Notes under the pieces: generated by a model
What the model saw: only the letters and a program-made list of their open reading frames with translations
Told to the model about the DNA's origin: nothing
Databases searched by the model: none
Virus record (IMG/VR): IMGVR_UViG_3300010282_000004
Span: 83,595 to 147,594 of that record
Origin: a virus
Taxonomy: Duplodnaviria; Caudoviricetes
DNA length: 64,000 nucleotides
Strand: one strand, 5' to 3'
In this document: in pieces, positions 20,164 through 25,128 of the stretch
How the letters are laid out: each line of letters begins with the position of its first letter
Numbering within the stretch: the first letter of the stretch is position 1
Position numbers and translations under genes: made by a program

Positions 20164-22199
20164 TTAAATTCCTTCATTCACACTTCTTTCCAAACATTTC
20201 TTGAATGCATCATATGCAATCTCAATACCTCTAAGTTCATCATTGTTATTAATCCCGGTGCTACTGAACCTCCCACGACTAAAGTCGTAGGGTTCTCGTT
20301 TCACATATTTCGTAACCTACTTTCTCCACGAGCAGATGCGATAGTTCCTACCGCCATAAATATGTTAATTAAACAATTTTTAAACCTTCATTTAGTATAT
20401 TCGTTGCAGCATTAACATCTCTGTCATGATGAGTACCACAATTAGGACATATCCATTCACGAACACCTAAATCTTTTGTTTCCTTATTTATATATCCACA
20501 ACAACTACAAGTTTGAGAACTTGCATACCATTTGTTTATCTTAACTACTTTCTTTCCGTACCAATCTGCCTTGTACTGAAGTTGTCTTGTAAACTCATAC
20601 CATGATACATCTGAGATTGACTTAGCGAGTTTATGATTCTTGACCATATTACTTACTTGTAAATCTTCAAGGCAGATAATATCATTCTCCTTAATTAAGT
20701 TTGTTGACAACTTCTGTAAGTAGTCTTTTCTTTGGTTCGCAATATGTTCATGTATCATAGCCACTTTAATTCTTGCTTTGTTATAACGATTACTGCCTAT
20801 TGTTTTTCTAGACAATTCTCTTTGTAACTTAACAAGTTTGTTAAATGACTTCTGTAAATACTTAGGATTTTCATATTTCGTACCATCAGATGATATGGCA
20901 AAATCTTTTATTCCTAAATCCAATCCAACACTTTTACCAATTTTAGGTAATTGTTCAATCTCAACATCTGTACAACAGATAGAACAATAATACTTGCCAG
21001 ATGGTTCTTGAGATATAGTTGCATTCACGATTCTTCCTTGAGGAATATGTTTATCTCTTGTTTTAACATATCCAAGTTTAGGTAATTTAATTGCTTTACC
21101 TAAAAATTGTATGTTATTATTTATATAAGAGGTTCTATAAGAGTATCTATGAGTTTTCTTTGACTTAAACTTTGGATATCCAAATCCACTCTTAAAGAAA
21201 TTTTTATATGCCTGTTCCAAGTCTTTTAAAGTGTTTTGTAATGCACATTTATCAGAAATCTGAAGCCATTCATGTTCTTTCTTTAATGAAGTGAGATCCT
21301 TACTACATTGGTTATATCCAAAATTTTCTTTTGTCTCTTCATAGATTTCTATTCTTTTAGCCAAATAGTAGTTATACACAAATCTGCAATTACCAAATGT
21401 TTGTGCTAAAAGTGCTTTTTGTTTTTTGTTAGGATATATACGATATTTATATGCTTTTTCCATATCAATCCAACTTTCTACAAAAATAACAGACTGTTTG
21501 TTACAATATGTTATTCCACGTTTTTTCAAAAACTTTTTCAAAAAAAAACGAAAAAAGTTGAATTTAATTAACATATTTATGGTGGCTGATACTATTGCAT
21601 CAACCTACAACTTTAACCATTTTAGAGGTTGTCGTTCTTTTACGATTCGCTATTTCGTAAACAGTTCTCTAAGGAACACCCCTTACTTTTCAGTAAGGCA
21701 CAGACTATATCTTATCCATGTGTAGTAAAAACTACATTTAGGCGAAACCACTTCGGCATGCTTATGCCTACTCCCCTCAGGAGGGATAGTCGTTGAACGT
21801 TCTCCTATTCGGAGCTTCGCTGCTGATTACCAATTTTTGTAGAAAGCACTTAGGATTTAACCATATGCCATATAATTACTTTTTTCTGCTTTCGCAACAT
21901 TCACACTTAGGCTTATTTCATCCTTATGTTGTAGTGTAATTATCTTTAAGGTATTCCAGCAATTCAGTTTCTTTATTGGACGATTTCTCGCCACTATGCA
22001 CAGATTTCTCTATGCACTAACTATTGTTTTGTCTAACTCATGACTAAAGTCACGAGTGTGCGACAAAATTTCTAATCAAATCAATTTCCTTTGTTACATC
22101 TGACAGAAGTTTGATACAATACTTCTGATTTGATAGCTTACAATACTTTTCAAGTAATGCCTTGAATTCATCAACATCTACTTCATTTTTGTTCAACAT
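20164..22199 (-). CDS. 74-aa hypothetical protein split by the IStron (exon 1 22199-22075, exon 2 20263-20164)
   Basis: joining ...TTGAT|TAGCACC... gives in-frame MLNKNE...[18 protein letters not shown]...VNEGI*. Confidence 0.8.
20264..20370 (-). ncRNA. omegaRNA scaffold / right end of the IStron
   Basis: structured region from the tnpB stop to GGTTCAG; guide would be exon 2 (TAGCACCGGGATTAAT). Confidence 0.6.
20369..21463 (-). CDS. tnpB: RNA-guided endonuclease TnpB
   Basis: [42 protein letters not shown]; RuvC D-E-D intact. Confidence 0.95.
21690..22074 (-). ncRNA. group I intron catalytic core
   Basis: P GAATTGCTGGAA (21954-21965), Q AATCAGCAG (21820-21828), R GTTCAACGACTA (21787-21798), S AAGATATAGTC (21703-21713). 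Confidence 0.9.
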
Positions 22200-23781: not shown

Positions 23782-23841
23782 TATTCCTCATCTCCTCTAT
23801 ATTCCCAAAATATACACTCACTTCCATCTTCGTAATTCAAC

Positions 23842-25128
23842 TTGAACCTCTCATGACTAAAGCCACGAGATTCTTGGGAACAGTAGACCAACGTCCACTT
23901 ATTAACCAAGCTAACCCGGCAGTTCCTGCCGTTATATTTTTAACTCTAAGTTACATTCAATATTCTTAATCCTTCGTTTAGAATATTTATTGCTGCATTT
24001 ACATCTCTATCATGATGTGTATTGCAACAAGGGCAAACCCATTCCCTTACAGAAAGATCTTTTGTATCCTTGTTTACATATCCACATACATTACATGTCT
24101 GAGAACTTGCAAAGAACTTATCTACTTTTACAACCTGTTTGCCATACCAATTTGCTTTATATTCAAGTTGCCTTACAAATTCTGACCATGATACATCTGA
24201 AATAGATTGTGCGAGTTTATGATTTTGAATCATATTTTTTATTTGTAAATCTTCAATGCAGACAACATCATTGTATTTTATAATGTTTGTGGACAATTTA
24301 TGTAAAAAGTCCTTTCTTTGATTTGCTATATGTTCTTGTAATCTTGCCACATTTATTCTTGCTTTATTACGGTTTGAACCACCTTTTGTTTTTCGAGATA
24401 ATTCTCTCTGTAATTTAACAAGTTTTTTAAGTGATTGCTTTAAGTAATGAGGATTAGGTATTGACTTCCCATCACTTGTAATACAAAATTCCTTTATTCC
24501 TAAATCAATACCTATTTCACTATTTGTTTTAGGCAATGGCTTATTGTCTACATCAGTACAACATAATGAAACGTAATACTTGCCATTCGGTTCTTGAGAT
24601 ATTGTTGCACTAAGTATTCTTCCCTGTTGGATCAACTTGTTTTTTGTTTTTACCATCCCTAATTTAGGTAATTTAATATACTTATAACAATATTCTATGT
24701 TGTTATTATTACATTTACTTTTATAAGAAAACTTGTGAGTTTTCTTGGTTTTAAACTTAGGGTAACCGGTATGCTCTTTAAAGAATTTTTGATAAGCATT
24801 ATCTAAATCTTTAAGTGATGATTGCAATGCAGTAGCATCAACTTCTTTAAGCCATTCAAGTTCTTTTTTAAGTTGTGTTAAATCACTTGAACATTGATTG
24901 TATGTATAAGATTCTTTATTACTTTTATATCTTTCAATACGTTCTGCAAGATATTTATTGTATACAAATCTACAACAACCAAACGTTTTGGCTATTAAAA
25001 CCTTTTGATTTTTATTTGGATATATTCTATATTTATATGCTTTCTCCACATTGCCACCTCACTTTCTTTTAATATTTATTGTGCCAATTCATTCCATGAC
25101 TGAAGTCACGGGTGTTCTTGGTCTATTT
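23842..25128 (-). mobile_element. TnpB-only IS200/IS605-family (IS1341-type) element
   Basis: follows TTTAT; left-end hairpin CCCGTGACTTCAGTCATGG, right-end hairpin CTCGTGGCTTTAGTCATGAG, ends GGTTCAA. Confidence 0.85.
23946..25049 (-). CDS. tnpB: RNA-guided endonuclease TnpB
   Basis: [26 protein letters not shown]. Confidence 0.95.

Follow-up and report, generated by a model that had tools for sequence, protein, structure and literature searches.

We analyzed a 64-kb window (64,000 nt, positions 83,595–147,594) of the IMG/VR virus record IMGVR_UViG_3300010282_000004 (Duplodnaviria; Caudoviricetes), in which a small phage gene is split by an IStron, that is, a group I intron combined with an insertion sequence (IS). 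All features of the locus are on the minus strand, and all positions are those of the window unless noted. The IStron occupies 20264–22074 (1811 nt) and is made up of a 5′ non-coding part of ∼610 nt, an open reading frame (ORF) of 364 amino acids that encodes TnpB (21463–20369) and a 3′ part of 105 nt that ends in ...GGGAGGTTCAG. Exon 1 of the split gene (22199–22075) starts with the ATG at 22199 and runs for 41 codons plus AT to ...GAA ATT GAT TTG AT, where its frame enters the IStron and meets a stop codon at 22052–22050. Exon 2 (20263–20164) consists of a T, 32 codons and TAA; here the frame resumes at 20263 (T AGC ACC GGG...) and closes with the TAA at 20166–20164. Joining 22199–22075 to 20263–20164 yields an ORF of 74 amino acids, in place of which the ORF track lists two orphan fragments.

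A preliminary description of this DNA had proposed that removal of 20264–22074 restores a hidden gene, and the data bear this out, as the joined frame is open and unbroken homologues exist. Searching with the exon-1 ORF led to proteins of 74 amino acids, and in their clusters we counted nine different sequences without a break, encoded on 22 public contigs. P0009, which comes from a contig of 147.9 kb, agrees with the predicted spliced product at all 66 of its residues, and P0006 and P0008 depart from that product only by S33A. All nine unbroken sequences read ..EIDL(I/L)S(T/A)GINN.. at the junction, and this agreement with the predicted junction is far beyond chance. Because every unbroken allele reads through this point with Ser43, the junction is assigned to TTGAT|TAGCAC, and because unbroken alleles carry ..DLISTG.. 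across it, we take the hidden gene to be real. An alternative 3′ splice site three bases further on (after CAGTAG) would also be in frame; it would delete Ser43, which is kept in all unbroken alleles, and was rejected. At the DNA level, the empty allele is predicted to read ...GATTTGAT|TAGCACCGGG... without interruption. The preliminary description had suggested looking for empty alleles in related phages. Such alleles were found as proteins on the 22 contigs, and none was found at 80 IMG/VR loci with an SSB-like neighbour (51–68% amino acid identity), to which the accessory region at 19.6–30 kb is not common. Scans of viral and metagenome contigs with P0001/A1 gave no match either. The 74-amino-acid family forms a single cluster at 50% identity, with no match in Pfam or PHROG, and its AlphaFold model consists of three helices at low confidence (predicted local distance difference test score 64.5).

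The nearest named relatives of the IStron reside in the Clostridioides phage ES-S-0173-01 (CP067352.1), a Clostridioides sp. plasmid (CP061362.1) and a C. difficile plasmid (CP103805.1), with ∼71–73% nucleotide identity over 91% of the element and 67% amino acid identity in TnpB. Alignment to these relatives delimits both ends. On the left, the element follows TTGAT (22079–22075), the last five bases of exon 1, which would serve at once as IS605 target, as transposon-associated motif (TAM) of TnpB and as 5′ strand of the intron helix P1. On the right, it ends in TCAG (20267–20264), whose last base, G20264, is the predicted ωG and 3′ splice site as well as the right boundary of the transposon. 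The exons are joined without target duplication. The ends read TTGAT|TAGAAATTTTGTCGCACACTCGTGACTTTAGTCATGAG... and ...GACTTTAGTCGTGGGAGGTTCAG| in the phage, and TTGAT|TAAAAAATAGCTACGCACACTCGTGACTTTAGTCATGAG... and ...GACTTTAGTCATGGGAGGTTCAG| in the Clostridioides IStrons; common to both are a left end of TTGAT|TA... with a hairpin and a right end of ..GACTTTAGTC..GGGAGGTTCAG|. The left-end hairpin, CTCGTGACTTTAGTCATGAG, is located at 22056–22037 and the right-end hairpin, CCCTACGACTTTAGTCGTGGG, at 20292–20272. Both align with the Clostridioides ends, and the alignments show the palindromes to be homologous to those of the three Clostridioides IStrons and of EfISt1 from Enterococcus faecium. 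In IS200/IS605 elements, the left-end subterminal hairpin is the structure recognized by TnpA. The IS605-type hairpins, the TTGAT target and the terminal TCAG supplying ωG had all been named in the preliminary description, and each was recovered here.

Copies of the element at other sites confirm these boundaries. From the public runs that contain the stretch, we compared four, each from a different study (food production, ‘organism A’, rumen and ‘organism B’), and contigs from all four match 20264–22079/80 and nothing of the phage flanks. Copies X1–X3 are ∼99% identical to the phage copy and X18 is ∼96% identical, with 21769–22079 being letter-identical in X1. On the left side, TTGAT is kept in all compared copies (X1, X2, X3 and X18). 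On the right side, the matches of X3 and X18 stop at 20264, X3 continuing with ATTAAAATGG..., and X1 and X2 continue with TAGCACCG and then TGGTGGAAAT.... The contigs thus diverge exactly at the element ends, so that the same IStron must sit at two or more other sites, with the ends that had been proposed. As the four runs do not cover the phage flanks, they say nothing on the abundance of the phage. Exact 26-mer scans of viral and metagenome contigs for other copies of the IStron found none.

Two further observations concern these copies. At the X1/X2 site, the first 8 nt past the right end are also TAGCACCG, as at 20256–20263 (minus strand) in the phage, after which the sequences diverge, and no relationship is seen between the left flanks. 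An 8-nt coincidence of this kind has a chance of ∼1.5e-5 per comparison, and a possible cause of the match is read-through of the right end to a second cleavage site, carrying along 8 nt of the phage gene. In addition, one low-depth X2 contig joins the left end after its hairpin (22033) to the start of tnpB (21465), skipping 567 nt of the intron, which hints, weakly given the 30 letters on the shorter side of the contig, that a sibling of this IS without the intron exists.

The 5′ part of the IStron contains a group I ribozyme core. When a 551-nt stretch was scanned, the Rfam group I intron model RF00028 matched 21681–22021 over its full length (positions 1–253) with 71.8 bits (E = 2.5e-18; cut-off 50 bits), and a search of the virus’s own genome gave 62.8 bits for the same intron. 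An Rfam gathering scan of the whole window and an E-value scan of 5.8 kb both missed it because speed filters drop it in long scans, whereas the short stretch recovers it; a negative whole-window scan is therefore no evidence against an intron. A second RF00028 match outside the window (G000:C1:76738-76884, minus strand) scored 25.4 bits, below the cut-off, and did not reappear when that stretch was scanned directly with Rfam. The core comprises P2 to P9. Its R element (GTTCAACGACTAT, 21798–21786) and S element (AAGATATAGTC, 21713–21703) form a perfect P7 of six pairs (GACUAU/AUAGUC), and the group I elements that the preliminary description had read from the letters are thus present on the minus strand. 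P7.1 and P7.2 are represented by a pair of hairpins that lie between R and the 3′ P3 strand, and P9 is extended, with P9, P9.1 and P9.2 predicted and conserved; both are traits of class IA2 (PMC4227781). The P9.1 and P9.2 hairpins of the consensus fold, together with a GAACGA motif (21637–21632) upstream of tnpB, occupy 21677–21627, and the IS part starts after them (PMC4227781).

Conservation of this fold was assessed in an alignment of five IStron 5′ parts, namely those of this element, the three Clostridioides IStrons and EfISt1. The consensus fold has 139 predicted pairs, of which 36 show compensatory changes on both sides. In the predicted P1, UUGAU|UA pairs with the internal guide sequence UAGUUAG (22023–22017), and the U·G pair at the splice site, formed by U22075, is kept in five of five, in line with the conserved U-G that had been proposed. 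The P1 pair at position −3 tracks the target: it is G-C in Clostridioides and G·U in the phage, and EfISt1, with ATTAT as its target, has U-A. The extended P1 stem shifts between the aligned IStrons, from UAGCUAC/GUAGCUA to UUUUGUC/GACAAAA, and fold and end alignment place the left-end hairpin at its tip.

The tnpB gene is intact. Its product carries the Pfam domains HTH_OrfB_IS605, OrfB_IS605 and Cas12f1-like_TNB and aligns from end to end with the known structures of ISDra2 TnpB (E = 6e-109). D182, E266 and D349 of the RuvC domain align with D191, E278 and D361 of ISDra2, and both CxxC pairs of the zinc finger are kept, so TnpB is predicted to be catalytically intact, as had been suggested. 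In the X18 copy (∼96% identical), 13 of the 23 listed tnpB differences fall at third codon positions by hand count, a bias that suggests purifying selection. A search for TnpA (Y1/HUH transposase, PF01797) gave zero matches in the 147.6-kb virus record, which carries two TnpB genes only, the other one belonging to a nearby intron-less element (element B, see below). The IStron is therefore non-autonomous, like the common ‘delta-ORF A + ORF B’ form.

The right end (20264–20410, upstream limit approximate), which contains the hairpin at 20272–20292, is homologous in alignment to the right ends of element B and of the Clostridioides and Enterococcus IStrons, including a GGAAC-loop hairpin and the terminal hairpin. 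By analogy with ISDra2 TnpB, RNA from this end probably provides the ωRNA scaffold. The guide would be the first bases of exon 2, and we assign the first 20 nt (TAGCACCGGGATTAATAACA, 20263–20244) to this putative role from the mechanism of IS605 TnpB (PMC10055086, 10.1101/2023.11.20.567912). TnpB should accordingly recognize TTGAT-TAGCACCGGGATTAAT. That the guide matches the empty allele, as the preliminary description noted, is true by construction and was checked at the protein level alone.

An inverted-repeat (IR) stem of ∼40 bp is formed by a 5′ arm at 21601–21563 and a 3′ arm at 20373–20335 (−44.3 kcal/mol). It includes a perfect run of 21 bp and encloses tnpB and its stop codon, the latter being overlapped by the 3′ arm. 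In the Clostridioides IStrons the stem lies in the same place with another sequence, which argues that selection acts on the pairing rather than on the sequence. In the phage copy, the 3′ arm further overlaps the first hairpin of the putative ωRNA, GCGGUAGGAACUAUCGC (20354–20338), a structure that element B, which has no intron, and the other right ends possess too; the two folds are therefore mutually exclusive. The three-way function of IStrons and the conflict between their RNAs have been published (10.1101/2023.11.20.567912; 10.64898/2026.03.11.711047), and we infer that the competition between stem and hairpin may be one physical basis of this conflict between ribozyme and guide RNA. In group A elements, the overlap could be what switches the RNA between folding for splicing and folding as guide RNA.

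Some of the unbroken alleles (P0002, P0003 and P0010) vary right at the insertion site, with Ile42Leu and Thr44Ala. Ile42Leu must alter TTGAT, that is, the TAM and target, and Thr44Ala alters guide positions 4–6, so either change might protect an allele from insertion and cleavage. Two of the nine columns that vary among P0001–P0003 fall at the insertion site, a proportion not statistically distinct from chance. Another sequence, P0004 (59 amino acids, from a 508-nt contig), matches the 74-amino-acid protein over ∼32 residues and is unrelated to it beyond that point, possibly representing a further allele that was interrupted or rearranged.

Among known systems, the element is closest to CdISt1 and the CdiIStrons of C. 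difficile, reportedly the subject of work by Braun in 2000. Like them, it combines a 5′ IA2 intron with GAACGA, TTGAT and TCAG, and as in group A of the CdISt1 type, it has end hairpins, an IR stem and a TnpB-only form of ∼1.8 kb that lacks TnpA. Group A IStrons use TTGAT, ATTAT or TTTAT as target, terminate in TCAG, have P9.2 and a motif of the GAACGA type ahead of their IS part, carry an IR stem around their ORFs and often lose ORF A, their sizes then being 1760–1857 bp (Tourasse 2014, PMC4227781; Zedaveinyte 2023, 10.1101/2023.11.20.567912). All tested defining features of group A are present here, which agrees with the IStron proposed in the preliminary description; splicing itself is a prediction from these features. 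In contrast to the CdISt1 group, this copy resides in an uncultured ruminant-gut phage and not in a Clostridioides chromosome, P2, P2.1, P5, P8 and both IR arms differ in sequence, and no remnant of tnpA was recognized. Furthermore, the IR stem measures ∼40 bp, compared with 6–10 bp for group A in the 2014 survey (PMC4227781).

Phage-borne IStrons in print have so far belonged to group B, as exemplified by CbISt3 and CbISt4 of the Clostridium botulinum phages c-st and D-1873, whose intron core is ∼80% identical over 178 nt (PMC4227781). Group B IStrons are of IS607 type: their TnpA is a serine recombinase, their targets end in GG, their terminus is CGG and their 5′ splice site has G instead of U. 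The present element has none of these traits. ISDra2 (IS8301) of Deinococcus radiodurans (PDB 8exa, 8bf8 and 8h1j) shares TnpB over its full length, the catalytic residues, TTGAT and the end hairpins (PMC4227781); unlike this IStron, it is without an intron and encodes its own TnpA. The introns with homing endonucleases in phages (T4 td/I-TevI, Twort and SPO1) are self-splicing IA-type introns in a phage gene whose nuclease can cut intron-less alleles upon co-infection, and the locus is expected to resemble them in this. Here, however, the nuclease is RNA-guided and transposon-derived, the element has transposon ends, and unrelated TTGAT sites are usable. Across 50,697 phage records, 461 contain TnpB homologues, and most of the 5′ part of the IStron is found in only one of them. 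In species-representative genomes, the best TnpB match has 58% amino acid identity (Oscillibacter and relatives), the intron of the IStron occurs in none, and no host can be named from them.

Downstream of the split gene, the phage encodes an SSB-like protein, a Sak4-like annealase, a DnaB-like helicase, a RecJ-like exonuclease and the alpha subunit of DNA polymerase III. Of the named phages, Clostridium phage Amboise comes closest (48% amino acid identity in the polymerase). A promoter and terminator scan found fewer promoter-like sites than in shuffled sequences and four terminator-like sites compared with 1.4 in shuffles, and showed nothing bearing on the IStron. Element B (23841–25128, minus strand, ∼1288 nt) is a TnpB element without an intron, located in the accessory region of the split gene at a distance of 1.8 kb from the IStron. 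Its tnpB (25049–23946) has a GTG start and 72% nucleotide identity to that of the IStron, and only ∼80 nt separate its left-end hairpin (CCGTGACTTCAGTCATGG) from the ORF. It is preceded by ..GGTTTAT|, its right end is ..GAGGTTCAAG|, and it lies 16 nt past the stop codon of the upstream gene. Removing it joins ATGAAGGTTTAT to TTGAATTAC... and creates a mini-ORF of 23 codons with a ribosome-binding site, overlapping the start of the next gene; element B, which has nothing with which to splice itself out, may thus interrupt a very small gene.

Taken together, 20264–22074 is very probably a young, non-autonomous group A IStron of the CdISt1 type, inserted after TTGAT in a 74-codon gene of a large ruminant-gut Firmicutes phage. 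According to the mechanism that we propose, the 74-amino-acid gene would be transcribed through the IStron, and the first 400–500 nt of the IStron would fold as an IA2 ribozyme, with P1 (UUGAU|UA/UAGUUAG) setting the U·G pair at the splice site. The ∼40-bp IR stem would loop out the 1.1-kb tnpB and bring the last ∼70 nt with the ωG (G20264) to the core, and two transesterifications would then join TTGAT to TAGCAC, so that the 74-amino-acid protein could be made. Unspliced RNA would instead yield TnpB, which would bind the ωRNA of the right end and use the first 16–20 nt of exon 2 as guide. This complex is expected to cut the IStron-free allele (TTGAT followed by TAGCACCGGG...), and recombinational repair from an IStron-bearing genome would copy the IStron into the break, which amounts to homing, a plausible outcome that the preliminary description had likewise suggested. 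Transposition to new TTGAT sites would need TnpA in trans, because the phage record has none.

Several points weigh against this interpretation. The record is a metagenome-assembled virus genome of 147.6 kb, 83% complete. P10 with exon 2 has only 2 bp, which gives no independent support to the 3′ splice site, although this is expected for IStrons. The empty alleles are known as protein sequences, so that TAM and guide identity are read at the amino acid level only. The phage copy also has private changes compared with the other copies, namely Asn310 in TnpB, where X1, X2 and X3 have Asp (from the difference at 20536), base 20306 in the right end and two bases in the spacer before tnpB. Finally, there is no RNA run among the sequencing runs listed for the stretch, which is an absence of data.

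The last point, with the same limit, would also suit a dead insertion, an IStron by descent that no longer splices efficiently and has inactivated the 74-amino-acid gene, the loss being tolerated because the gene is a dispensable accessory one. Tolerance is conceivable for a narrow orphan gene without a known family, and the proximity of element B indicates that the phage puts up with plain insertions in this region. However, the ribozyme part shows next to no differences from the copies that other studies have at other loci, the Rfam score is well above the cut-off and all helices are kept in comparison with the Clostridioides IStrons. Moreover, both exons still have open frames and one unbroken allele has exactly the predicted product, indicating a very recent insertion without decay. 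We therefore regard a dead insertion as unlikely. A misjoin, in which the assembler placed an IStron repeat into the phage contig, might be suspected, as the record is a metagenome assembly and the element is seen in several metagenome contexts. Here, though, both junctions lie in one gene, the insertion is exactly after TTGAT, and precise removal gives a frame identical to natural unbroken alleles, which a misjoin would not produce at both ends; this explanation strikes us as highly improbable.

With more doubt than belief, we consider that the IStron, lacking TnpA, may work in this phage as a device for RNA-guided homing and marker exclusion, spreading together with flanking accessory genes and setting a rival phage back. 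During co-infection, TnpB and its ωRNA would cut the IStron-free allele (TTGAT and TAGCACCGGG...) of a sibling phage, and the Sak4-like annealase, SSB-like and RecJ-like genes downstream in the phage could repair the break from the IStron-bearing genome. That IStrons which lack TnpA but have an active TnpB spread by homing, co-infecting phages included, is a published idea (PMC13565253).

The locus adds no new kind of element, as the class, its TnpA-less forms, its carriage by phages and the idea of homing are already in print. It does hold a lesson for annotation, since a default Rfam scan of 64 kb misses the intron and the ORF track breaks the 74-amino-acid gene into two orphans. What it offers is a natural pair, one small phage gene with an IStron in this record and without it on 22 public contigs. 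With such natural sequences, three ideas that are in print but have seen little testing can be examined: scarless splicing of group A IStrons in a phage transcript becomes checkable, as do the spread of a TnpA-less IStron between co-infecting phages by TnpB-driven homing and the choice of the RNA between the ribozyme and the guide-RNA fold.

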